Shown here piece after piece: positions 41,534-52,677 of a stretch of 64,000 bases of DNA (its first letter is position 1; each line of letters begins with the position of its first letter). The stretch comes from Leptonemataceae bacterium (lineage in GTDB: Bacteria > Spirochaetota > Leptospiria > Leptospirales > Leptonemataceae), in the NCBI GenBank assembly GCA_965227295.1, contig OZ245742.1:192001-256000 (forward strand), written 5' to 3'. The notes under the pieces are model-generated. The model was not told where the DNA came from. It was given only the letters and a program-made list of their open reading frames with translations, and ran no database searches. The position numbers and the translations under genes are program-made.

Positions 41534-42535
41534 ATGAAAGTCGCCGTTCTGGGTTCCGGAAGTTTCGGTACCGCTCTCGCCTCCATCCTCGCCACAAAAT
41601 CCTACGATGTCACCATCTGGACGCGCCGCGAAGAACTCGCCGCGGATATCAACGAGCGCCACGAGAATACAAAGTACCTGCCCGGCCTCGAACTCCCGCC
41701 GAACGTAAAGGCCGACACGGACATCGGCCGCACCCTGGCCGGTGCCGAAATGGTGGTCGTGGCGATTCCGGCCCAGCAGATCGGCGGCGTCATGAAGGAA
41801 CACGGCGGCCTGCTGCCGGAGAACGTGCCCATCGTCTCGGCGGCGAAGGGCATCGAAGAGGGTCGCCTGCGTCTGGTCTCGGAGATCCTCGAAGAGGAAC
41901 TACCCGAAAAGCACCACGCCCACCTCAGCTATCTTTCCGGACCGAGCTTCGCCAAAGAGATGATCCAGGGCATACCGACCGCGGTCAGCATTGCCTCGCA
42001 CAACGAGGAGACGGCGAAGGCCGTCCAGCACGCCTTTCACACCGGCTTTTTTCGAACCTACTGGACGCCGGACGTCATCGGCGTGGAAGTCGGCGGTTCG
42101 CTGAAGAACGTCATCGCCATCGCCGCCGGGGTCAGCGACGGCCTGGGCTTCGGTTTGAACACCCGGGCCGCCATCATCACCCGGGGTCTCACGGAAATCA
42201 CCCGCCTGGGCAAGGCCAAGGGCGCGGATCCCATGACCTTCCTGGGCCTCGCCGGCATGGGCGACCTCGTGCTCACCTGCACCGGCAACCTCAGCCGGAA
42301 CCGGACCGTCGGCATGAAGCTCGGCGAAGGCAAGAAGCTCAAGCAGGCTCTGGACGAAATGAACCAGGTCGTCGAGGGCGTGTACACCGCGGAGTCCGCC
42401 TACCAGTTGAGCCGGAAGCTGAATGTGGATATGGCCATCACGCGCGAGGTTTACCGGTTATTATATGAAGACAAGGAGCCGCTTCAGGTGACGAAGGATC
42501 TCATGGGCCGCGAACTCAAGCGCGAGGGCATCTGA
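41534..42535 (+). CDS. gpsA: NAD(P)H-dependent glycerol-3-phosphate dehydrogenase
   Basis: [48 protein letters not shown]. Confidence 0.96.
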
Positions 42536-42692: not shown

Positions 42693-44258
42693 ATGCGCCG
42701 CGCCACATCTCGTTCAGCGCTCCTTGCGCCCGCGCCGGTTTCCGGATCGCTCCTCATCCCTGCTCTCGTAGCGCTCTTCGCGGCGCTGCCCCTGGGCCCG
42801 ACCGACCTGCGCGCGGACGTCATCGGCGATCGCGAGCTGGGAACACTCCAACCGGGCCCGGCCGGCAATACGGCCTATCGCAGTTCCGGCCTGGACCCGG
42901 AGTATCCGCAGGGCACTCTCACGGTTCAGCTCAGCGAACAACCGAATCAGGTGTTCCGTCTGCTCGTCGAAGGAACAGGCCCCCGGCAGTCGGACCTGGG
43001 CCTCCGCGTGGGGGATCAAACGTTCGACCAGGACCTCCAGGGAGACTACCGCCGGGAAAGCGTGCTGCTCCAGGGCGGGCGCACGCACACGGTCCAGATC
43101 TTTCAAATCAACCAGTCACCGGCCGACATCAAGCTTCGCATGCGCCTCGAACGCCTGGAGCCGCAAGGCCTCGTTCGGGATCAGCCGCGTGGCGCGAGCG
43201 TGGACGCGCAGCAACCTTCGGCCTTCTTCGTATTTGATCATCCGGCACCCGGACCGCTCACGCTGACTCTCGAAAGCGACGCGGAATCACGGACGGAGCT
43301 TACCGCTGTCCTCCTGCAGCCGGACGGGCACATCGTCCTCCGCGACGAGGACGAAGACCGCGATCCCCACAACGAAATCGTCCTCCTCCCCGAGGCCCCC
43401 GCCGGCCGCTACTACGTGGAAATCCGGCGCCGGGTCCTGTGGTCTCGTCGGCAGACTGGCCAGGCGGGCTTTCGCGTTTCCTACCACAACCGCCTGTTAG
43501 AAGTGGAGAGCAATCTTCGCGTGGCGGAAATGGAAGGACAGGAGCCGACGGAAGACCCAGGCGAGGCCGACGAGGAGTCCGGCCATTTGCGATCCATTGC
43601 CCATGTCGTACCGGGGGAGGACTTCCTGCCCGGCCGCAAGATTCAAGGCCGTCTCGACCGGCGCAATCCGCGCACGTTTCACCGCGTGAACGTGGAGGCG
43701 GAACGCCCGCTGCTCATTGATGTGAGGGCGGAATTGGGCGACCTCATGTTGATTGTGCGCGGGCCGTTTGAGTACCGCGCGGACTTCGACGCCGGCAAGG
43801 AACCGGGCCGGGAAATCGTAGTCCTGCCGTTTGCCGGGGAGTATCAAATCCTGGTGCAGTCCTCGGACCCCGAGGAAGATCGCACCATTCCGTACACCGT
43901 TCGGACGGCCGTGCTCAATCCGCGGGAACTCAAGGCCGGCCAGAGCGAAGAACAGAACATCGGCCTGCACGAGCCCGGCCTGTATCGCTTCACGGTGGGC
44001 TACAACTTCCCGGTGCTTGTCAACGTCCGCGGCCGCAAACCCGCGGATCTCTTTCTAACGATCTTCGCACGCAAGAGCGACGGCAGCATCGAAGTCCGCA
44101 ACCAGGACGCCGACGAAAACGGCCGAACCGGCGATGAACTGGTGCGCATCACATCGTCCGGCGAATTTTACATTATGGTCCGCCAGGGTTCCGGTCGACT
44201 GCGAAACATCTCGTTCGAGATCCAGCTCGATGAGAACCCCGTGCTCTCCGCGCCTTGA
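42693..44258 (+). CDS. Secreted protein with repeated PPC-like beta-sandwich modules
   Basis: Signal peptide; about four modules with DLxLx...DxD....E pattern and GRYYVEI/GEYQILV/GEFYIMV strands. Confidence 0.62.
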   Translation: MRRATSRSALLAPAPVSGSLLIPALVALFAALPLGPTDLRADVIGDRELGTLQPGPAGNTAYRSSGLDPEYPQGTLTVQLSEQPNQVFRLLVEGTGPRQSDLGLRVGDQTFDQDLQGDYRRESVLLQGGRTHTVQIFQINQSPADIKLRMRLERLEPQGLVRDQPRGASVDAQQPSAFFVFDHPAPGPLTLTLESDAESRTELTAVLLQPDGHIVLRDEDEDRDPHNEIVLLPEAPAGRYYVEIRRRVLWSRRQTGQAGFRVSYHNRLLEVESNLRVAEMEGQEPTEDPGEADEESGHLRSIAHVVPGEDFLPGRKIQGRLDRRNPRTFHRVNVEAERPLLIDVRAELGDLMLIVRGPFEYRADFDAGKEPGREIVVLPFAGEYQILVQSSDPEEDRTIPYTVRTAVLNPRELKAGQSEEQNIGLHEPGLYRFTVGYNFPVLVNVRGRKPADLFLTIFARKSDGSIEVRNQDADENGRTGDELVRITSSGEFYIMVRQGSGRLRNISFEIQLDENPVLSAP

Positions 44259-44263
44259 ATTTT

Positions 44264-44390
44264 GACTCCGAGGTCCCGAGAGGCAAGATGAAATTTTCAT
44301 CATGCTGAACTTCGCGCTCATCGCCGAACGCCGTTCTACGGAAGCAGGCCCTCCCCGTCTTTCTCCTCGGTATCTCGGTCCTCGGAGTCA
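44264..44390. repeat. Intergenic inverted-repeat element (ACTCCGAGGACCGAG family), copy 2
   Basis: gactccgaggtcccgag faces cctcggtatctcggtcctcggagtca. Confidence 0.78.
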
Positions 44391-44487
44391 TTCCCCGATT
44401 ATGTCCCCGGTTTAGCCGATATTCCTCGATCCTTAGAAAAAAACTATTGCGACGTGGGGAAAGAGTGCATAAATCTGGCGCAGCGAC

Positions 44488-46410
44488 ATGACGGCCTCCT
44501 CTAATACACCGGCGAAATCATCCCTGCGTTTTTCGTTCGCATTTAAACTGGCCCTTGCCTTCGCGCTCCTCGTTACCATCGCAACCGGCGGTAGTATGAT
44601 CTGGGTCTACCAGCAGACTCGCTCGCTCGTCATCGAGCAGATGCGCAACCGCCTCAAAGACATCGGTCGAACGGGCACGTTCCTCTTCGAACAACAACAT
44701 CGTCAGGATCTGCGCAAGCTCCTGGACATCGTTCACGAGAACATGGAGTTCTCGAATACGCCGGAACAGGCGGCAATCCTGGCCGACGAAGAACAGGGCA
44801 CCTACGAATCCCTGCCGCCGGAGTTATCTTCGAAAGTTATGGAGAGCCCGGAGTTCCAGCGCGTCGTTACGGCACTACGGCAAATCCGCGAAGGCTCACG
44901 CTGGCACGTCCGCCCGCTCTACGACATCCCGGCCCTGGACATCATCCGCGCCGAACAGGAAGATCTGCCGAAAGACGAGCAGGACTTTCCGACTCTGGAG
45001 TACATCTATCTCCTCGCCGAAGTACCCGGCTATCCGAAAGAGCAGTACATCATGTATCTTGCCGATTCGGACTACCTGCCCGTGGACGCCGACGGCGACG
45101 GCGCGTACGACGGCGACGACGACTACGAAGGCAATCCCATCGCGAACCTGACGCCGCCGCTCACGGAAGAAATGCACATGGGTTTCTCCGGCGAGGCCGT
45201 CTCCGAGAAAACGTTTACCGAGGACCAGTGGGGTGACGTCGTCATCTCCGGTTACGTTCCGATCCTGGACGCTCAGGGCAACGTGCTTGCAGTCCTCGGT
45301 ATGGACTATAACGCGAAGAGTGACGCCAACCGCATCAGCGATCTGCTGCAGTTCTCCATCGCCACGACGGTGGTGGTGTTCATCCTGGCCATCGGCATGT
45401 CGATCCTCATGGCGCGGCTCTTAACTCGTCCTATTAAGAAGTTACAGGAAGGCGCCGAACGCGTGGGCGACCGGGACTTCAGTACCCAGGTAGACGTGCG
45501 GTCTCGAGACGAGCTCGGCGTGCTCGCGAAGTCGTTCAACTCCATGGTAACCGAGATCCGCGAGTACGCGAACAACCTGGAAGAACTAAACGCCGCCTAC
45601 GAACGTTTCGTGCCGCAGGAGTTTCTGCGGCAAATGGGCCAGAACAACATCATCGATGTAAAACTCGGCGATCAGGTCATGCGCGAGATGACCATTCTCT
45701 TTTCGGACATCCGTTCGTTTACAACGCTCTCGGAAACGATGACGCCGAAGGAAAACTTCGACTTCCTGAACGCCTATCTACAACGGGTATCCCCGCTCAT
45801 CCGGACACACCAGGGTTTCATCGATAAATTCATCGGCGACGCCATCATGGCGCTGTTTCCGGAGAATGTGAGGAACGCCGTGGACGGCGCCATCGACATG
45901 CAGGCGGAACTCCGCTCGTTCAACGATGCGCATCCCGACGCCCCGCCCATTCGCATCGGCATCGGGCTGCACACGGGCAACCTCATGCTCGGTACCATCG
46001 GCGAAGAACGGCGCATGGAAAGCACGGTGATTTCGGACGCGGTGAACACGGCCTCCCGCCTGGAGGGCCTCACCAAAAGCTTCGGCGCGAACATCCTGAT
46101 CAGCGAGTACTCCATCAACATGATGCACCAGGAGAATCACAGTTTCTCCTCTCGCTACCTGGGCAAGGTGCGGGTCAAAGGCAAACGCGCCTCGGTGAAC
46201 GTCTTCGAAATCCTGAACGCCGACGCCCCGGACCTCATGGACCGCAAGCTGAAGACCAAAGAACGCTTCGAAGAAGCCATTGCCCTGTTCCAGCAGGGCA
46301 AGTTCGGCGACGCGGCGCGGATCTTCCGCGAAGTGATCGACGCCAACGAACTGGACTCCGCCGCCCGGGCTTATGTCGACCGCTGCGAACGGATCTCCAC
46401 CGATCTCTAA
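44488..46410 (+). CDS. Membrane adenylate cyclase (class III) with periplasmic sensor and HAMP domain
   Basis: Two TMs; HAMP SRDELGVLAKSFNSM; FSDIRSFT, DKFIGDAIM, TVISDAVNTASRLE. Confidence 0.92.
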   Translation: MTASSNTPAKSSLRFSFAFKLALAFALLVTIATGGSMIWVYQQTRSLVIEQMRNRLKDIGRTGTFLFEQQHRQDLRKLLDIVHENMEFSNTPEQAAILADEEQGTYESLPPELSSKVMESPEFQRVVTALRQIREGSRWHVRPLYDIPALDIIRAEQEDLPKDEQDFPTLEYIYLLAEVPGYPKEQYIMYLADSDYLPVDADGDGAYDGDDDYEGNPIANLTPPLTEEMHMGFSGEAVSEKTFTEDQWGDVVISGYVPILDAQGNVLAVLGMDYNAKSDANRISDLLQFSIATTVVVFILAIGMSILMARLLTRPIKKLQEGAERVGDRDFSTQVDVRSRDELGVLAKSFNSMVTEIREYANNLEELNAAYERFVPQEFLRQMGQNNIIDVKLGDQVMREMTILFSDIRSFTTLSETMTPKENFDFLNAYLQRVSPLIRTHQGFIDKFIGDAIMALFPENVRNAVDGAIDMQAELRSFNDAHPDAPPIRIGIGLHTGNLMLGTIGEERRMESTVISDAVNTASRLEGLTKSFGANILISEYSINMMHQENHSFSSRYLGKVRVKGKRASVNVFEILNADAPDLMDRKLKTKERFEEAIALFQQGKFGDAARIFREVIDANELDSAARAYVDRCERISTDL

Positions 46411-46550
46411 GTTCGCTTCAGTTGAATCTAATAAGTCGGCCCGGAGCTAACACGGTGTCGGCGGCTTACGTCACGTAAGTGATTTTCCTCTGTCATCCCG
46501 TGCGTTCCTCTTTGTGGTTGACCCGCCTCTCTCCGGCAAGAAGCTGGAGC

Positions 46551-47228
46551 ATGCCCTCATCCTCACGACGGATTGCCGCGTTTTACGATGTGGACGGGAC
46601 CCTGGTCGACTCGAACATCGTCTACGCCTATCTCTACTACGCCCTGCGCCTGCCGAAGATCTCGGATCGCCTGAAGCGCATCTCCCGGGCCGCGCTGCTC
46701 TCGCCGGTGTACATCGCCGCGGAGCTGTTCAATCGCTCGGCCTTTAACAGGTTATTTTACGCGAACTACAAGGGCCTGCCCTTCGAACGCCTGCGGCTCA
46801 TGGGTCGCGAGGTGGCCGAAAAGGCTTTTATTCCGCATCTCTATGCCGACGCCCGGAGTCGCATTCGCACGGCAAAGGAACAGGGCATCGTGCAGGTGAT
46901 CGTCTCCGGCGCTCTGGATTTGGTGATGGAGCCCTTCGCCGCGGAGCTGGGCATCGACCACGTCATCGCCAACCGCCTGGAGTTTCAGGACAACGTCGCG
47001 ACGGGGCGGTTGCTGCCGCCGGTCCTGGCCGGCGAAGAAAAACGCAAGGCGGTCCAGACCTTCGCGCGGGAAAACGACATTGATCTTTCGCTCTCGTACG
47101 CCTTCGGCGATTCAAAAGCGGACCTGGGCATGCTTGAGTCGGTGGGTTTTCCGTGCGTGGTGAACCCGGGCAAGAACCTGGAAAGCATCGCCGCCGAACG
47201 CGGCTGGACGGCGTTGGCTTTTTCGTGA
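46551..47228 (+). CDS. HAD-IB family hydrolase (SerB-like)
   Basis: AFYDVDGTL, IVSGA, GEEK, AFGDSKADLGML...VVNP. Confidence 0.9.
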   Translation: MPSSSRRIAAFYDVDGTLVDSNIVYAYLYYALRLPKISDRLKRISRAALLSPVYIAAELFNRSAFNRLFYANYKGLPFERLRLMGREVAEKAFIPHLYADARSRIRTAKEQGIVQVIVSGALDLVMEPFAAELGIDHVIANRLEFQDNVATGRLLPPVLAGEEKRKAVQTFARENDIDLSLSYAFGDSKADLGMLESVGFPCVVNPGKNLESIAAERGWTALAFS

Positions 47229-47238
47229 AGGGGATGCG

Positions 47239-47384
47239 ACTCCGAGGAACGAGGGAACGTGGGAACGTGGGAACGTGGGAACGTGGGAACGAGAATAGAA
47301 AGAAGGCACTCATAACGAACAGCCACCAGGATACGATAGCTCTCCGAAAAATCCTCGGTGCCTCGGCGCCTCGGTGTTGAAAAT
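47239..47384. repeat. Intergenic inverted-repeat element copy 3, left arm expanded into (GGGAACGT)x4 tandem repeat
   Basis: actccgaggaacga then gggaacgt x4 (47253-47284) and gggaacga; right arm cctcggtgcctcggcgcctcggtgttgaa. Confidence 0.82.
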
Positions 47385-47389
47385 CTTTT

Positions 47390-49099
47390 ATGGCAGAAAC
47401 GCAAGATACAGTTCCCGACATTGAACAGGACCCCACGCAGCACGTCGCGGAGATCCAGACGCGCATCACCGATCACTTCGATCGCGCGCGCTCGTACACC
47501 CCCGGCGACGGTGAGGAAGATCCGGAGGTCGTGTACATCGACGAGACGTCGGCGAAGCGCGTCGTCTGGTCCGGTGAGGATTTGATCGAACTCGATCTCC
47601 CCGTGGGTACGCGCGTTGTGTACTCCAAAGAACCCATGCGCGGGTTGCGCGACGTGCGCGGCGCCATTCGTTACGCGCTCAAACATCCGGAAAAGATGCA
47701 ACCGCTCCCGCAGTTGCTCAAGGCCGGCATGAAAGTTACGATCTGCGTGGACGACATTTCGCTGCCGCTGCCCATGATGGCGAAACCCGATCTGCGGCAA
47801 CTCATGCTCGAAGAAGTACTGAGCATGCTCGCCGACGCCGGGGTGGACGACTTTCACATCATCGTGGCCACGGCCTTTCATCGTCGCATGACGCCCGGCG
47901 AAATCCGCCGCATGGTGGGCAACGACATCTACGAGAAGTACCACCCGCAGCGGCTCTACAATCACGACGCCGAAAAACCCGGCGGCATGAAATGGATGGG
48001 ACATACCGAATCCGGCGAAGCGGTGATGATCAACCGTCGCGCGGCGGAGAGCGATCTCATCGTCTACGTAAACATCAACTACGTTCCCATGAACGGCGGA
48101 CACAAGTCCGTGGGCACCGGCCTGGCCGGTTATCATACGCTGCGCGAGCACCACGACCCCGAGGTCATCGCGGCGTCGAATTCGTATATGGATCCCGGCA
48201 AGTCGGCCCTGGCCGACGCGAACCGGCGCATCGGTAACTTACTCGAAGACAAACTTAAGATCTTCCACATCGAGTCGGCGCTGAACAACCGCACCTTCGC
48301 GCCGCCGCTGGAATTTCTGTCCCGCAACGAGGACAGCTATTCCTTGCTGGACCGGCAAATCCTGCGCGCCACCCAGGCCACGTTGAAACGTCTGCCGCCG
48401 CCCGCGAAACGCCGCATTTTCCGCCAGGTGCCGGCCCCCTACGAGTGCATCGCCGTGCACGCCGGCGAGGTCGACCGCGTGCACGATAAGATTCTGCGCA
48501 TCTCCCGCAAACAGTACACCATCAACGTCAAGGGCCAGGCGGACATTCTGCTGCTCGGCATTCCGTTTACGTCGCCGTACAGCGTAAACAGCATTCTGAA
48601 CCCGCTGCTCGTCCAGGTGATGGCCCTCGGTTATCTGTATCATCTCTACGAAGGCGGCGTTCCCCTCCTGCGCGACGGCGGCAGTTTGATCTTGTTTCAC
48701 CCGTGCCGCGACGAGTTCGATCCGCGCTTTCATCCGAGCTACATCGAGTTCTTTAATCGGCTGCTGCCCGAGAGCACGGACTCCCGCTACTTACAAAAGA
48801 AGTACGAGGTGGAGTTCGCGAAGAACCCGGAGTACATCGAGTTGTACCGTCACGGCTACGGCTATCACGGCGTACATCCGTTTTACATGTGGTACTGGGG
48901 CGAGAGCGGTCGGCGAAAGGTCGGCCAGGTGATTGCCGTGGGCGCCGAGCACCCGCACGTCCCGGAACGCATGGGCTGGGAGAACGCCGCGTCCTTCGAA
49001 GAGGCGTTAGCGATGGCGAAGTCCGCAGAGGGCATGCCGGCAAAGCCGCAAATCACGCTGCTGAAACAGCCGCCCATCGCGATTACGAAGTTGATATAA
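47390..49099 (+). CDS. Lactate racemase (LarA)-fold protein
   Basis: VTICVDDISLP, IVATAFHRRMT, YNHDA, INRRAAESDL, GGHKS resemble the LarA N-terminal (DUF2088) domain. Confidence 0.78.
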   Translation: MAETQDTVPDIEQDPTQHVAEIQTRITDHFDRARSYTPGDGEEDPEVVYIDETSAKRVVWSGEDLIELDLPVGTRVVYSKEPMRGLRDVRGAIRYALKHPEKMQPLPQLLKAGMKVTICVDDISLPLPMMAKPDLRQLMLEEVLSMLADAGVDDFHIIVATAFHRRMTPGEIRRMVGNDIYEKYHPQRLYNHDAEKPGGMKWMGHTESGEAVMINRRAAESDLIVYVNINYVPMNGGHKSVGTGLAGYHTLREHHDPEVIAASNSYMDPGKSALADANRRIGNLLEDKLKIFHIESALNNRTFAPPLEFLSRNEDSYSLLDRQILRATQATLKRLPPPAKRRIFRQVPAPYECIAVHAGEVDRVHDKILRISRKQYTINVKGQADILLLGIPFTSPYSVNSILNPLLVQVMALGYLYHLYEGGVPLLRDGGSLILFHPCRDEFDPRFHPSYIEFFNRLLPESTDSRYLQKKYEVEFAKNPEYIELYRHGYGYHGVHPFYMWYWGESGRRKVGQVIAVGAEHPHVPERMGWENAASFEEALAMAKSAEGMPAKPQITLLKQPPIAITKLI

Positions 49100-49112
49100 C
49101 GAAGAAATTTTC

Positions 49113-49242
49113 ACTCCGAGGACCGAGGATACGAGGGAAAAGAAAGAAGAAGAGTAAAAGCAAAAACGAAGACATTCATAGCCGAAAACGACTAACACAC
49201 ACTGTCCCTCGCAAAAAACCTCGGTCTCTCGGTCCTCGGAGT
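49113..49242. repeat. Intergenic inverted-repeat element (ACTCCGAGGACCGAG family), copy 4
   Basis: actccgaggaccgaggatacgagg faces cctcggtctctcggtcctcggagt. Confidence 0.8.
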
Positions 49243-49267
49243 TCATCTTCCTCTCCAGAGCAATACT

Positions 49268-52261
49268 ATGGCGAAATCAAAGAAAACCTCATCAAAATCC
49301 AGAACGAAGTCCGTCGAAGACATGTCGGTCGAAGAACTGCGGGCCGCCCTCGCCGAACGCGAGCAGGCGTCCCGCGGCAACGGCACTGCAGCAACGTCCG
49401 TTAGCCGTTCTTCACAAAGTTCTACGCAGGAACTCTTTAGCGTAATCCACACGCTCCACGGCAAAAAGATCTTCATGATCGGCGGCACCGGCTTTCTCGG
49501 CCGGGTGATGCTTTACATGTTCCTGAAATACGTGCCGGGCATTGAGCGCATCTATCTGTTGATTCGCCCCACCCACGGCCGCACCGGCGATGATCGCCTT
49601 ATGCGGGAAATTCTGGAATCGCCGGTGTTCACCGAGGCCGGTGCCGGCAGCGACGAGGAGGCCCGCTTTTTTCGCGAGCAGGCCCGGGCAAAGATCACCG
49701 TCGTCGAAGGCGACGCCTCCCGCCCCGGCCTGGGGCTGAGTGAGGAAGACGCGGCAATGGTTTGTCGCGAAGCGGACGCCGTTTTTAATACCGCGGGCAA
49801 CGTGGAGTTTAACCCGCCGCTGGATCTTTCGCTGAACGCAAACGCCATTGCCACGAAAGAAGTCCTGGACTTCACCGAAACCACGCAGTGCAAGAAGTAC
49901 CTCCACGTGTCCACGTGTTACGTCGCCGACCGCGCGCTGCATCCGGACTTCGCCCCGGAAGAAATCGTGCTGGATCGCGTCGTCGGATCGTCGGGTAACG
50001 AGGTGCGCATAGATGTCGAACAAGAACTCCAGGATGCCCGCGACGTTGTGGCTCGTACGAAGCAACGCTACGACGATCCGGACAGCCTGAACGAGTACCG
50101 CGACAACGCCCGCCGGGAACTGCGGCGCATGGGTCGCGAGGACGTTTCCGATCGTCTCATCGAAAAGACCGCGAAGAATTTACGCACGCTGGCCATGCGC
50201 GAAGAACTGGTGCGCATCGGTCGCGAGCGCGCCGAACGTTTGAATCGTCCGAACGTGTACACGTATACGAAGACCCTGGCCGAACTGCTCGTGAAGTCCC
50301 GGGAGGATAAGATCGAGTACACCATCGTACGGCCGTCTATCGTGGAGACGTCGCTCAAACATCCGTTTCCCGGCTGGAACGAGGGCATCCAGGGCTCGGC
50401 ACCGTTGATCTACATGGTATATCGCGGCCACCGCATGCTGCCGTCGTTCTCGGACGAGCCGGGCGAGCGCCGGGAGGCGACGCTGGACATCATCCCCGTA
50501 GACCTGGTCGCCGCCGGTTCCACCCTGGCGTTGTGCGCCCTGCTCCGCGGCGAGCAGAAAGACGTCTACCAGCTCGCCGCCGGTCCCATCGACACGCCGA
50601 TCACCCCGAACGTTCTACTAAATATAGTTCAACATAACTTAAGAAACCGCTCGAACGAGTCCGAAATTTTCGCCGGCCTGGGCGGATGGCTGCGACGTAA
50701 CCTCCAGGCGTACCCGGTTACGAAGAAGACGTTCCGGCGCTTCAGCTCTCCGCGAACGTTACAGGTCCTCACGAACTTCCGCGATCGCCTGGAACGTTTT
50801 CGCAGCAAACGTAACCTGCCCGGCCCGGGCTCGGACATTCTTCAGAAAGTGCAAACCACGGTGGAACGTTTCTACCAGCTCTCGTACATGAAGAACCGCA
50901 TCTTCTCGGAGTTTCTGCCGTTCATGAATCACGGCTATCCGGTCTTCCAGAACCGCAACGGCATTGATCTCTACAAGCGCTTGCCGGAGAACGAACGCGA
51001 CCTGTTCTACTTCGATCCGCCGGACATCGACTTCATCGATTACATGGAAGGGCTGCACATGGAAGCGGTCTTCCAGTGGGTGTTTCCGGTATTGGATAAA
51101 CGTTTCAAGGCCATCACGAGCATCGGCAAAGACGCCGGGAAAAACAAGGACGACGGGGACGCCCGCACGTTGCTGGACGCCATGCGGGCCGCACTAACTG
51201 CTGACGATCTGGAATTTACGGATCGCCTGCACCTGCTCCGGCGCACCATGCGGGATCGGCGTCGCGCCCGGGGCGAGTCCGCGAAAAAGAGCGACGCCGG
51301 CATCGAAAACACACCGGCGGAAAAGGATCCCGGCAGCGCCGTAAGCTGGCTCGAAAGTCACCTGCAAAAACTGGCGGGGCGAACCGACATCATCAAAAAT
51401 CTAAAAGACGAGTCCGATGATTACCTGGAACGCGTGAGCAAACACCTCGAGTTTTTGACCGGCACCAACGTAACGCCGGCTACGCTGAAGGACCTCGGCT
51501 CGGTGTCGAAGATCGCCCGCCACCTGGATCGTTATCGTGAAGACCAGGGCCGCACGGGCGGCGGTCGCTTTGAACTTCCGAAAGACGGCGTGGACGTGCC
51601 GCGCTGGCTTGCCGATCCCACGAGCGATTTTCTCTACGGCCTCCAAATGTGGTTTTACCGTAACGTAATGCAGGTGAAGATTACGGGGCAGGACAACGTA
51701 CCGCTCAACAATCACAACGTCATCGTCGTCGCGAATCACGCCTCGCACCTGGACTACGGCCTTGTGTGGTTCAGCCTGGGCGAGTACGCCCGGGACATGG
51801 GCATCCTGGCCGCCCGCGATTACTTCTTCGATCGTTTCTGGAAGTCCACGTTCTTCGGCAACTTTCTGAACCTGGTGCCCATCGAACGTTCGGACAATGC
51901 CAGTTATTCCCGCGCACTCAAACACGCGGTGAAGTATCTGGAAAAGGGCGGGCCGCTGTTGATTTTTCCGGAGGGCACACGCTCGAAGGACGGCCGCATG
52001 AAACCGTTCCGCCACGGCCTCGGCTGGCTGGTCCAACACACCGGCGCCGACGTCCTGCCCCTGCGTCTATACAACACGCACGTCGCGCTGCCCAAGGGCA
52101 AAACCGTCGTCCGCTCGACGGACCTCCGCGTACACATCGGCAAGCTGGTCTCCTACGATACCCTCGCCGAGGAAACGCAGGCGTATTCGCCGACGAAGAC
52201 GTACGCGCACATCGCGAAACGCCTGGAAGAAGCGGTCCGGGACATTCACGATCACGATTGA
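49268..52261 (+). CDS. Fatty acyl-CoA reductase (male-sterility/NAD_binding_4) fused to a PlsC-type acyltransferase; ElbD-like without adenylation domain
   Basis: GGTGFLG, HVSTCYV, NVYTYTKTLAE, IVRPSIVE....PFPGWNEG, DIIPVDLV; C-terminal ANHASHLD and IFPEGTRS. Confidence 0.88.
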   Translation: MAKSKKTSSKSRTKSVEDMSVEELRAALAEREQASRGNGTAATSVSRSSQSSTQELFSVIHTLHGKKIFMIGGTGFLGRVMLYMFLKYVPGIERIYLLIRPTHGRTGDDRLMREILESPVFTEAGAGSDEEARFFREQARAKITVVEGDASRPGLGLSEEDAAMVCREADAVFNTAGNVEFNPPLDLSLNANAIATKEVLDFTETTQCKKYLHVSTCYVADRALHPDFAPEEIVLDRVVGSSGNEVRIDVEQELQDARDVVARTKQRYDDPDSLNEYRDNARRELRRMGREDVSDRLIEKTAKNLRTLAMREELVRIGRERAERLNRPNVYTYTKTLAELLVKSREDKIEYTIVRPSIVETSLKHPFPGWNEGIQGSAPLIYMVYRGHRMLPSFSDEPGERREATLDIIPVDLVAAGSTLALCALLRGEQKDVYQLAAGPIDTPITPNVLLNIVQHNLRNRSNESEIFAGLGGWLRRNLQAYPVTKKTFRRFSSPRTLQVLTNFRDRLERFRSKRNLPGPGSDILQKVQTTVERFYQLSYMKNRIFSEFLPFMNHGYPVFQNRNGIDLYKRLPENERDLFYFDPPDIDFIDYMEGLHMEAVFQWVFPVLDKRFKAITSIGKDAGKNKDDGDARTLLDAMRAALTADDLEFTDRLHLLRRTMRDRRRARGESAKKSDAGIENTPAEKDPGSAVSWLESHLQKLAGRTDIIKNLKDESDDYLERVSKHLEFLTGTNVTPATLKDLGSVSKIARHLDRYREDQGRTGGGRFELPKDGVDVPRWLADPTSDFLYGLQMWFYRNVMQVKITGQDNVPLNNHNVIVVANHASHLDYGLVWFSLGEYARDMGILAARDYFFDRFWKSTFFGNFLNLVPIERSDNASYSRALKHAVKYLEKGGPLLIFPEGTRSKDGRMKPFRHGLGWLVQHTGADVLPLRLYNTHVALPKGKTVVRSTDLRVHIGKLVSYDTLAEETQAYSPTKTYAHIAKRLEEAVRDIHDHD

Positions 52262-52296: not shown

Positions 52297-52677
52297 ATGA
52301 GCATCAAAGCCCTGATTGCCGACGATGATCCCGATGCGATCGCCCTGCTCGGCACGCATCTTCAAAAGTTCGGCATCGACGTACACGCCACCGAGAACCC
52401 GCGCGAGGCGGTGGATTTTTACAAGAGCCTGGGGCCGGACGTGGTGTTCATGGATATCGGCATGCCGTTCCCGGGCGGCTTCATTGCCGTCGAAAACATC
52501 CGTCACGCCGCGCGCACGTTGAAACGCAAGGTCGTGATCATCATGTATACGGCGTCCAGCAAACCCGAGGACGTCAAGAAGGCACAGACCTTCGGCGCCG
52601 ACGACTATTTGCTCAAGCCCGTCACGGCGGACATGATCCGTGAAAAGCTGAGGCGTTTTTTCCCGAAGCTCGCTTAA
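52297..52677 (+). CDS. Single-domain response regulator
   Basis: LIADDD, VFMDIGMP, MYTA, GADDYLLKP. Confidence 0.9.
   Translation: MSIKALIADDDPDAIALLGTHLQKFGIDVHATENPREAVDFYKSLGPDVVFMDIGMPFPGGFIAVENIRHAARTLKRKVVIIMYTASSKPEDVKKAQTFGADDYLLKPVTADMIREKLRRFFPKLA

Follow-up and report, generated by a model that had tools for sequence, protein, structure and literature searches.

In the myxobacterium Myxococcus xanthus, ether lipids have been tied by genetics to elbD, a gene of the operon elbABCDE (MXAN_1531-MXAN_1527; ElbD is MXAN_1528), as described in the accessible parts of PMC9131029 and PMC13012113. Within this operon, elbB encodes a HAD protein, the function of elbC is given as unknown, and elbD encodes a protein with fatty acyl reductase (FAR), acyl-CoA synthetase (ACS), carrier (ACP) and acyltransferase (AT) domains (PMC9131029, accessible part). 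According to the same part of that paper, loss of elbD nearly abolishes the ether lipids of M. xanthus and loss of AGPS barely lowers them, and even in that species neither the reductase nor the acyltransferase activity has been demonstrated for ElbD in vitro. ElbD homologues are not always accompanied by ether lipids: in cultured Pontiella, they are present and ether lipids were not detected (PMC11868695, accessible part). A second type of protein, the AGPS-linked FARAT (a FAR-GNPAT fusion) of the aerobic AGPS/PEDS1 plasmalogen pathway (MXAN_1675; Tetrahymena FARAT), also carries a FAR domain followed by an acyltransferase domain. Proteins with FAR and AT domains from Leptonemataceae are already tabulated in Supplementary Table S4 of PMC13012113, without comment in the accessible part of that paper.

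Gene order of the spirochaetal locus

The whole stretch of DNA that we analyzed (the window, 64 kb) comes from a spirochaete that groups with Leptonemataceae and not with the larger family of its order; the preliminary description of this DNA had referred to Leptospiraceae. Three ORFs, all on the + strand (46479-47228, 47390-49099 and 49268-52261), are separated by gaps of 161 nt and then 168 nt. They had been described as co-directional genes for a HAD-IB hydrolase, a LarA-fold protein and a fatty acyl reductase-acyltransferase, and both points are confirmed, the identities by Pfam and NCBIfam profile matches. The first, an ElbB-like HAD-IB hydrolase (46551..47228, +; PF12710, 130.7 bits; TIGR01490, 130.2 bits, cut-off 98.3), lies in an ORF whose reading frame extends back to a GTG at 46479, and the in-frame ATG at 46551, also used in the preliminary description, is the likelier start. 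The protein has the motifs DVDGT at 37 and GDSKAD at 210, which we take to be the catalytic motifs of HAD enzymes, and is 36-44% identical to the products of HAD genes located 5′ of ElbC homologues, in the ElbB position.

The same arrangement recurs elsewhere. Of 80 loci with an ElbC relative, from Myxococcota, Acidobacteriota and other phyla, 59 combine an upstream HAD gene with a downstream ElbD-type FAR gene (counted singly, 68 loci have the HAD gene and 68 have the FAR gene), and ACS is also present in 46 of the 50 FAR-bearing loci with room downstream. Within the Myxococcaceae family, whose genomes stood in for M. xanthus itself in this comparison, four of six loci have the order SDR, HAD, LarA homologue, ElbD-type protein, SDR, which is the published elbA-E order. 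Because this order holds a LarA homologue at the ElbC slot, the published ElbC of "unknown function" is a LarA homologue. The preliminary description had placed a HAD gene and a conserved hypothetical gene before elbD, as is the case in these four loci, and its reductase, adenylation, carrier and acyltransferase domains for ElbD match the make-up given in the accessible part of PMC9131029. It had also allowed that the three proteins might group away from Elb proteins and never co-occur elsewhere; on the contrary, the nearest non-spirochaetal relatives of all three are found in elb-type clusters.

We therefore consider it likely that the locus is an elb-type ether-lipid biosynthesis cluster, consisting of an elbB-elbC-elbD core with a shortened ElbD, in a Leptonemataceae-like spirochaete. 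Homology, gene order, domain loss, intact catalytic motifs and a phyletic link between ElbC and larC are all observed; that ether lipids would be the product is inferred by analogy with M. xanthus genetics. The core order HAD, LarA homologue, reductase/acyltransferase is common to the spirochaetal locus and the myxobacterial operon, and identities to elb proteins of the Myxococcaceae-family loci are 52-54% for ElbC, 37-39% for HAD, about 30% for FAR and about 42% for AT. However, the window cluster has no ElbA, and elbE, adjacent to elbD in M. xanthus, has a possible counterpart in an ElbE-like SDR gene 13 kb downstream of the cluster (37-40% identical to the ElbE-position SDR). An ElbE-type SDR gene adjoins the cluster in four relatives (G402, G405, G414 and G416), and in G405 the genes for SDR, HAD, ElbC, FAR-AT, SDR, larE, larC and larB are contiguous.

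Among 156 Leptospirales genomes, 15 carry the short form of ElbD, all of them in the window's own family, and the fusion was found in none of the 114 genomes of the larger family. Twelve loci from family relatives were readable; 8 of them show the HAD-LarA-reductase order, which spans eight genera of the family. Links to the flanking genes are narrower. gpsA, encoding NAD(P)H-dependent glycerol-3-phosphate dehydrogenase (41534..42535, +; NF000942, 445.5 bits), ends 4.0 kb before 46551, as had been noted earlier; among loci long enough to show linkage, its putative link to the cluster is limited to two genomes of the same genus. A single-domain response regulator gene (52297..52677, +; PF00072, 81.2 bits), which starts 36 nt downstream of the fusion gene and may be co-transcribed with the cluster, likewise adjoins the fusion gene in only two same-genus genomes. 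Scans of the locus yielded no promoter-like sites and no convincing terminator.

A short ElbD

The third gene (49268..52261, +) encodes a 997-aa protein that combines a fatty acyl reductase, a degenerate carrier domain and a PlsC-type acyltransferase. Its FAR NAD(P)-binding domain spans aa 72-416 (49481..50515, +; PF07993, 171 bits) and is followed by a match to the C-terminal "Sterile" domain (PF03015, aa 520-596) whose 25.3 bits are under the cut-off of 35.4; the acyltransferase domain spans aa 803-933 (51674..52066, +; PF01553, 86.6 bits). The motifs GGTGFLG at 72, YTYTK at 331, NHASHLD at 823 and FPEGTRS at 900 are presumably the catalytic motifs of the two halves. Beyond the short-form group, the protein is most closely related to ElbD-type proteins of ~1476 aa: aa 57-615 are 32.6% identical to the FAR region of the ElbD-type protein P0040 (280 bits), and aa 792-995 are 42.6% identical to an ElbD acyltransferase (170 bits).

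ElbD proteins of elb operons are about 1470-1600 aa long, whereas the window protein has no AMP-binding (acyl-CoA-synthetase) domain in a profile scan and has lost the attachment motif of the carrier domain. The elb-like character given to the fusion in the preliminary description thus holds for the ElbD-type FAR and AT domains, but not for the adenylation domain, and the carrier is a dead remnant. This remnant, a degenerate ACP-like four-helix segment (aa 689-762; 51332..51553, +), is visible only by profile comparison with the ElbD ACP region (hhalign, probability 85.8%, E = 5.3e-6; GFDS attachment motif gone) and in the structure model (helices 689-703, 717-731, 737-743 and 746-762; pLDDT roughly 71-85). 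Ser 716 is not conserved among homologues, Pfam PP-binding gave no match to the fusion even at E = 10, and when the linker was compared with five ElbD proteins by BLAST, a single weak match emerged (P0043, 33 bits, E = 1e-5); a functional ACP was therefore ruled out. The remnant points to loss of ACS and ACP rather than gain; the tree of short and long ElbD forms, with a very long outgroup branch (2.76), does not resolve the basal split. Substrate supply would differ from that of ElbD, given the absent adenylation domain and the dead carrier.

The domain order is also that of the AGPS-linked FARAT proteins. By its sequence affinities, however, the fusion protein is a short ElbD and not of the FARAT type: comparison with an AGPS-adjacent FARAT from a Myxococcaceae-family genome gave only 68 + 58 bits for FAR and 20 bits (E = 0.71) for AT, and the window fusion gene has no AGPS gene adjoining it.

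ElbC, the nickel-pincer cofactor and AGPS

The middle gene (47390..49099, +) encodes the ElbC homologue (P0002), a LarA-superfamily enzyme of the nickel-pincer-nucleotide (NPN) type with one catalytic His and the sole PF09861 match in the genome (N-terminal Lar_N domain, 134.2 bits). It is 52-59% identical to the products of ElbC-position genes of Myxococcota and Acidobacteriota, and its score against the NCBIfam family "LarAH14/15/16" (NF052592) exceeds the cut-off of 740 (761.3 bits). The best matches among solved structures are 9q2u/9q3j (E = 1.4e-31), and a structure model of the protein (pLDDT 85.7) has 9q3k as its top fold match (TM 0.86 on target; Foldseek E = 6.9e-34, compared with 1.6e-22 for 5huq). 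ElbC shares its fold with LarASp and LarABw (9q2u, 9q3k, 9q3j; PMC12611868; TM 0.84-0.86 on target), and like them keeps the residues for catalysis (one His), cofactor tethering (Lys), nickel binding (His) and ribose binding (Asp). D121/D122, H164, K239 and H254/H255 are invariant among 14 sequences; of these, the first catalytic His (H164), the cofactor-tethering K239 and the Ni-binding H254/H255 align to LarASp residues. The second catalytic His of LarA is needed for racemisation. ElbC lacks it, with no conserved His 10 residues before K239 (His174 in L. plantarum LarA), and N228 and N230, which flank the absent site, are invariant. This His is missing in LarASp and LarABw as well, and also in Groups 14/15 (PMC12611868). 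We set aside a role for ElbC in G3P/G1P stereoinversion because of the missing His; this role is also disfavored by the writing of myxobacterial ether lipids as sn-glycero-3-phospho compounds in the accessible part of PMC9131029.

Despite the common fold, ElbC is only 20-23% identical to LarASp and LarABw, which PMC12611868 assigns to a subfamily with an Asn substitution (Desguin et al., Group 17). Their genes lie among carbohydrate genes, while elbC lies among lipid genes, and the basic residue with which they bind the carboxylate of the substrate is aligned, in a low-confidence loop, with Leu/Val in ElbC.

The cofactor genes larB, larC and larE are located 19 kb from the cluster, and all score over their cut-offs (NF033503, 280.7 bits; TIGR00299, 196.4 bits; TIGR00268, 295.7 bits). 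Six relatives either have no elbC gene or encode an ElbC that has lost its cofactor residues, and larC was not found in these genomes. They carry instead a module of a mammalian-like AGPS (match to 4bby, E = 5.5e-175) with a classical SDR (ketoreductase) as its fusion partner or as the next gene; in some relatives the AGPS adjoins the short-ElbD fusion. Given this distribution, ElbC may be an ether-forming enzyme. The pattern is suggestive rather than proven: only two well-supported independent contrasts (three on all branches) are all in the expected direction (sign test, P = 0.5). The distribution also suggests that the ElbC step is equivalent in net outcome to that of eukaryotic AGPS plus acyl/alkyl-DHAP reductase, although the folds are unrelated and the latter use FAD plus NADPH rather than a nickel-pincer nucleotide.

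The presence of AGPS genes raises an alternative, in which the fusion protein supplies fatty alcohol and acyl-DHAP as a FARAT would, an AGPS encoded elsewhere makes the ether bond, a stand-alone ketoreductase reduces the product, and ElbC is peripheral (e.g., in 2-hydroxy acid isomerisation). The window genome does encode an AGPS homologue outside the cluster (2uuu, E = 5.8e-93), and one of its SDRs shares 51% identity with the ketoreductase from the mammalian-like AGPS module; the FAR-then-AT order is that of FARAT proteins (PMC13012113, accessible part), NCBIfam labels the ElbC family "hydroxyacid isomerase," and ElbC is dispensable in the six relatives. We nevertheless regard this alternative as unlikely. 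Beyond the ElbD affinity of the fusion and the near loss of M. xanthus ether lipids with elbD but not with AGPS, the AGPS type of the window genome also occurs in family genomes that have no fusion; the ElbC-deficient relatives hold that type and yet also possess the mammalian-like AGPS with ketoreductase; and in two relatives (G405 and G409) that carry the cluster and ElbC as well as larC, neither AGPS type gave a match.

Still less probable is that the cluster makes non-ether lipids from fatty alcohols, such as free alcohols, wax-type esters or unusual acyl-glycerols. The FAR-like domain is of an alcohol-forming kind, including the weak "Sterile" match, and the Pontiella case shows that ElbD homologues and ether lipids can be dissociated (PMC11868695, accessible part). 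However, the association with ElbB and ElbC is conserved across phyla, the same fusion adjoins a bona fide AGPS in relatives, and the Pfam scan of the fusion gave no acyltransferase family other than the PlsC/AGPAT type. With this as the sole acyltransferase, a wax ester is an unlikely product, so that of the fatty alcohol-lipid pathway first proposed for the locus the elb relationship is upheld by synteny and nearest relatives and the wax-type ester is not. Chance adjacency of three genes with no joint function has a negligible probability, even though gaps of about 160 nt and the lack of detected promoter-like sites would permit separate transcription, because 59 of 80 loci across phyla share the order, as do eight genera of the family itself.

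Proposed pathway and its implications

Under the elb-type reading, the reductase half of the fusion would convert fatty acyl-CoA or acyl-ACP to fatty alcohol or aldehyde, and the acyltransferase half would transfer an acyl group onto a glycerol-phosphate or DHAP backbone. ElbC, carrying the nickel-pincer cofactor made by larB-larC-larE, would work on that backbone, and the HAD enzyme would remove phosphate. The predicted product is a 1-O-alkyl glycerolipid, which could be desaturated to a plasmalogen by the CarF/PEDS1 homologue encoded outside the cluster (PF10520, 178 bits; NCBIfam equivalog score 173 bits, below the cut-off of 500).

More tentatively, ElbC could itself be an AGPS-independent, ether-forming NPN enzyme, a possibility to which we give less than even weight. 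The C2 hydroxyl of 1-acyl-glycerol-3-phosphate would be transiently oxidized to a ketone, the ketone would permit a fatty alcohol to take the place of the acyl group, and the hydride would be given back on the same face. One catalytic His could be enough in ElbC, since the hydride would return to the face it left. Such a reaction would yield 1-alkyl-glycerol-3-phosphate in one redox-neutral step, combining the jobs of AGPS and alkyl-DHAP reductase.

For ether-bond formation in Elb-type bacteria, ElbD is needed, M. xanthus can almost do without AGPS, and no role has been published for ElbC. Leptonemataceae offer a natural comparison, in which the same FAR-AT and HAD genes are paired either with ElbC and larBCE or with a mammalian-like AGPS-ketoreductase. 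Because the family provides both pairings, including two ElbC genomes without detectable AGPS, the hypothesis for ElbC is directly testable with few genes. If true, it would mean that nickel-pincer enzymes have a new reaction class and that ether lipids can be made by a new route, and would explain the near-universal presence of LarA homologues in aerobic Myxococcota. Predicted de novo synthesis of ether lipids and plasmalogens now reaches the free-living relatives of Leptospira.

Elb-type gene order in and beyond the window

The cluster comprises three co-directional ORFs separated by gaps of 161 and 168 nt. The ORFs and their domain scores bear out the preliminary description, which had named a HAD-IB hydrolase, a LarA-fold protein and a fatty-acyl reductase (FAR)-acyltransferase (AT) fusion. 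The HAD-IB hydrolase gene (46479/46551-47228, + strand) matches PF12710 (130.7 bits) and TIGR01490 (130.2 bits, cut-off 98.3), and its product contains DxDGT and GDxxxD motifs. The LarA-superfamily gene (47390-49099, + strand), whose product we call ElbC, matches PF09861 (134.2 bits) and NF052592 "LarAH14/15/16" (761.3 bits, cut-off 740). The third gene (49268-52261, + strand) encodes a 997-aa fusion of a PF07993 FAR domain (aa 72-416) with a PF01553 PlsC-type AT domain (aa 803-933), in which nucleotide-binding, YxxxK, HX4D and FPEGTRS motifs were all found. We take these motifs of the HAD and fusion proteins to be the catalytic ones. The gpsA gene, placed 4 kb upstream in the earlier reading, was found 4.0 kb upstream. 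The interval between gpsA and the cluster (42693-46410) encodes a 521-aa protein that matches nothing in Pfam or NCBIfam, together with an adenylate/guanylate cyclase that has a HAMP domain, and this pair adjoins the cluster in two same-genus genomes only. The window belongs to a single 5.94-Mb contig of its genome (G000), with a GC content of 0.598 and an estimated completeness of 93.55%.

As described in a review, the Myxococcus xanthus operon consists of elbA (NAD-dependent epimerase family), elbB (HAD), elbC (unknown function), elbD (FAR-acyl-CoA synthetase [ACS]-ACP-AT) and elbE (NAD-dependent epimerase family) (PMC9131029). Its elbB-elbC-elbD order agrees with the initial reading, in which ElbD is preceded by a HAD hydrolase and a conserved hypothetical gene. 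The locus tags are given as MXAN_1531 to MXAN_1527 (PMC13012113). According to the review, most alkyl and vinyl ether lipids of M. xanthus need elbD, and AGPS (MXAN_1676) adds only a little (PMC9131029).

We compared the elbA-E order with loci from Myxococcaceae-family genomes. Four of six loci have the order SDR, HAD, LarA homologue, FAR-ACS-(ACP)-AT, SDR; of the other two, one is missing just the first SDR and one has neither the HAD gene nor the LarA homologue. A seventh genome (G492) has only FAR-ACS-AT and the downstream SDR. Because these loci reproduce the elbA-E order, a LarA homologue occupies the ElbC position, and the window's ElbC is 52 to 54% identical to the protein found there.

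A profile search of a species-representative genome collection returned at least 596 relatives of the window's LarA-like protein, and the best 80 loci are mostly from Myxococcota and Acidobacteriota. Among these 80, a HAD gene lies on the same strand within 4 kb upstream in 68 loci (66 of the 72 with room for one), 68 have an ElbD-type FAR downstream (62 of 72 with room), and both are present in 59, so the arrangement does co-occur elsewhere. Three acidobacteriotal loci (L014, L062 and L067) have a FAR gene downstream of ElbC and, within reach, neither an adenylation nor an acyltransferase match; they may be split-ElbD variants of the kind mentioned in a sponge-symbiont preprint. From gene content and order, the window's cluster is probably an elb-type ether-lipid module.

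A shortened ElbD and a predicted nickel-pincer enzyme

The proposed relatedness of the fusion to ElbD holds for its FAR and AT domains, which are of ElbD type, and does not extend to an adenylation domain, which is absent, or to an intact carrier domain, which is present only in degenerate form. About 30 close homologues, one of them labelled "Leptospirales bacterium", share the two-domain architecture at 37 to 68% identity, and the next-best matches are proteins of ~1476 aa with ElbD architecture. Against P0040, an ElbD-type protein used for comparison, the FAR domain is 32.6% identical (280 bits) and the AT domain 42.6% identical (170 bits). The AMP-binding and ACP domains of P0040 span ~690 aa, and the fusion has ~175 aa in their place. 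By profile comparison, this linker corresponds to the ACP region of ElbD (hhalign probability 85.8%, E = 5.3e-6); in this alignment the GFDS phosphopantetheine site is missing from the fusion, and Pfam PP-binding has no match in the linker. The AlphaFold model places four helices there (689-703, 717-731, 737-743 and 746-762; pLDDT ~71-85), and S716, just ahead of helix 2, varies among the fusion homologues.

In a tree of FAR and AT domains whose root is not fixed, 23 short forms share a long stem and group together (SH-aLRT 100), with the 45 long forms outside this clade. We read the short ElbD as having lost its adenylation domain while its carrier domain decayed, and we infer the direction of loss; the fusion would therefore have to take acyl-CoA or acyl-ACP directly. 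The fusion was also considered as a FARAT, the AGPS-linked FAR-AT protein of the MXAN_1675 type, and this was rejected, as an AGPS-adjacent FAR-AT protein from a Myxococcaceae-family genome gave only 68 + 58 bits over FAR and 20 bits (E = 0.71) over AT.

The closest solved relatives of ElbC are the single-histidine LarA-like enzymes 9q2u and 9q3j (E = 1.4e-31 and 1.8e-25), with the alignment spanning both domains, and its model (pLDDT 85.7) best matches 9q3k (TM 0.86 on target). Residue roles were assigned from alignment to the solved relatives and from the roles described for them (PMC12611868): D122 would be the ribose-binding Asp, H164 the first catalytic His, K239 the cofactor-tethering Lys and H254/H255 the nickel ligand. 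All are invariant across 14 diverse sequences. The alignment has no second catalytic His, the place of which is flanked by invariant N228 and N230. Groups 14 and 15 of the 2020 LarA classification are described as being without this histidine (PMC12611868), and Frankia LarAH14 is reported as inactive on every 2-hydroxy acid tried (PMC7583248). The carboxylate-binding basic residue aligns to Leu/Val in ElbC, in a low-confidence loop. By alignment and model, ElbC is predicted to be a nickel-pincer enzyme.

The genes for the nickel-pincer cofactor lie 19 kb beyond the cluster, in a larB-larC-larE operon (G000:C1:263411-266305, minus strand; L096:7411-10305) in which all three genes score above NCBIfam cut-offs. 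ElbC is the sole PF09861 match in G000 (one match among 6 candidates), and therefore the cofactor pathway has no other visible client there.

Alternation of ElbC with a second AGPS

Of 401 genomes sampled from the phylum, the window's is the only one that reaches the NF052592 cut-off, and 84 have weaker LarA-family matches. The window's order is represented in the genome collection by two families, its own (42 genomes) and another (114 genomes, presumably Leptospiraceae); some of the relatives compared are incomplete MAGs. The short ElbD is present in 15 of the 156 genomes of the order, namely in 15 of 42 in the window's family and in 0 of 114 in the other. Seven of the 15 (G000, G419, G420, G405, G409, G414 and G416) encode ElbC at full length (720 bits or more; four above the 740-bit cut-off), each alongside a strong larC match, the larC of G414 holding one TAG and that of G416 being partial. 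In G405, SDR, HAD, ElbC, FAR-AT, SDR, larE, larC and larB are contiguous.

In G402, G404, G413 and G415, ElbC is absent and the HAD gene is directly followed by the fusion gene. G432 (L126:6719-8350) and G433 (L128:3764-5314) retain an ElbC ORF in which H164 is replaced by N and the H254/H255 pair is gone, with K239 also replaced by R in G433; these homologues may have become structural pseudoenzymes. None of these six genomes, which are 88 to 95% complete, has a larC match. Two genomes are less clear: in G417 (67% complete) larC has no match and ElbC is partial, lying at the end of a contig, and G407 (76% complete) has larC and no ElbC match.

Among the 42 family genomes, exactly these six ElbC-less or ElbC-degraded genomes carry a second, mammalian-like AGPS (AGPS2; 4bby, E = 5.5e-175), which scores at least 957 bits in them versus at most 256 bits in every other family genome. 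AGPS2 is fused to a classical short-chain dehydrogenase in G432 (1016 aa; L126:11391-14441) and, judging by ORF length, in G433, and is immediately followed by one in the other four carriers (e.g., G404, L131:10646-13551). The pair looks like an AGPS plus alkyl-DHAP-reductase module. In G432, AGPS2 directly follows the fusion gene; in G404 it and the HAD gene are ~0.7 kb apart, and in G402 the distance is 7 kb. The ElbC/AGPS2/larC pattern is perfect in counts, but with only two well-supported independent contrasts (three if all branches are counted) the sign test yields P = 0.5.

In the Myxococcaceae-family sample, larC is present in 26 of 26 genomes, ElbC-family proteins in 26 of 26 (25 above cut-off) and ElbD-type proteins in 25 of 26, which fits with the 80 to 100% of Myxococcota for which LarA homologues are reported (PMC11770544). 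Within the window's family, 6 of 7 genomes of genus g172 (G434-G440) have weak or split LarC-family matches (best ~32-90 bits), with no ElbC-family protein and no fusion gene.

A candidate route to ether lipids

Other putative ether-lipid genes of G000 lie outside the cluster. An SDR at 257,619-258,731 shares 37 to 40% identity with the SDR that occupies the ElbE position, and another SDR, located between transporter genes, is 51% identical to the AGPS2-linked ketoreductase. A CarF/PEDS1 homologue (G000:C1:2486295-2487032, minus strand; L097:6295-7032) scores 178 bits against PF10520 and 173 bits against NCBIfam CarF, below the cut-off of 500; CarF, a plasmalogen-forming desaturase, is present in 21 of the 42 family genomes. 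In G000 its gene adjoins that of a 7TM-receptor adenylate/guanylate cyclase. A first AGPS homologue (577 aa; ~1,127,400-1,129,160, minus strand; 2uuu, E = 5.8e-93; 4bby, E = 2.8e-68) precedes an endonuclease/exonuclease/phosphatase-family gene on the same strand (together G000:C1:1126355-1129156, minus strand; L187:5355-8156).

The main rival explanation is that the fusion merely feeds this first AGPS, with ElbC peripheral. AGPS of this type is widespread in the family, fusion-less genomes included. ElbC, larC and the fusion are all present in G405 and G409 (83% and 92% complete), in which neither type of AGPS, nor CarF, gave a match. We regard this explanation as improbable.

Parts of the pathway have been tabulated before. 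Leptospira CarF homologues are reported to be functional PEDS1 (PMC9131029; preprint 10.1101/2025.10.10.681575, an earlier version of PMC13012113). In the 12 of 15 supplementary files of PMC13012113 that were searched, Leptospirales are mentioned 58 times for PEDS1, 59 for AGPS and 5 for FAR, and the GNPAT table has zero Leptospirales entries. The FAR table includes two Leptonemataceae proteins, 1001 and 953 aa long, that combine FAR with an acyltransferase; the fusion has thus been listed there, without discussion. Within open-access PMC and bioRxiv, we found no literature tying DUF2088 to ether lipids, elbC to lactate racemase, or Leptonema to ether lipids. New here are the spirochaetal short ElbD, whose carrier domain is dead, the coupling between ElbC and larBCE, and the alternation of ElbC with the AGPS-ketoreductase module.

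In the elb-type module that we propose, the reductase half of the fusion would supply the fatty alcohol or aldehyde, and its acyltransferase half the acylated C3 backbone, on which ElbC carrying the nickel-pincer cofactor would act; the HAD enzyme would dephosphorylate, and CarF would subsequently form plasmalogens. Tentatively, ElbC itself might make the ether bond. A LarA-type cofactor takes a hydride from a secondary alcohol and then gives it back, so that on 1-acyl-G3P ElbC could create the transient ketone that AGPS chemistry requires and then restore the alcohol, making both AGPS and alkyl-DHAP reductase unnecessary. With the hydride returned to the same face, one catalytic base would be enough, which fits the single histidine of ElbC. 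Such a role would also fit the loss of the carboxylate-binding residue, the existence of genomes free of AGPS, and the presence of the AGPS-ketoreductase module in genomes that no longer carry an intact ElbC. We infer that, across the window's family, ElbC and this module may be functionally equivalent.
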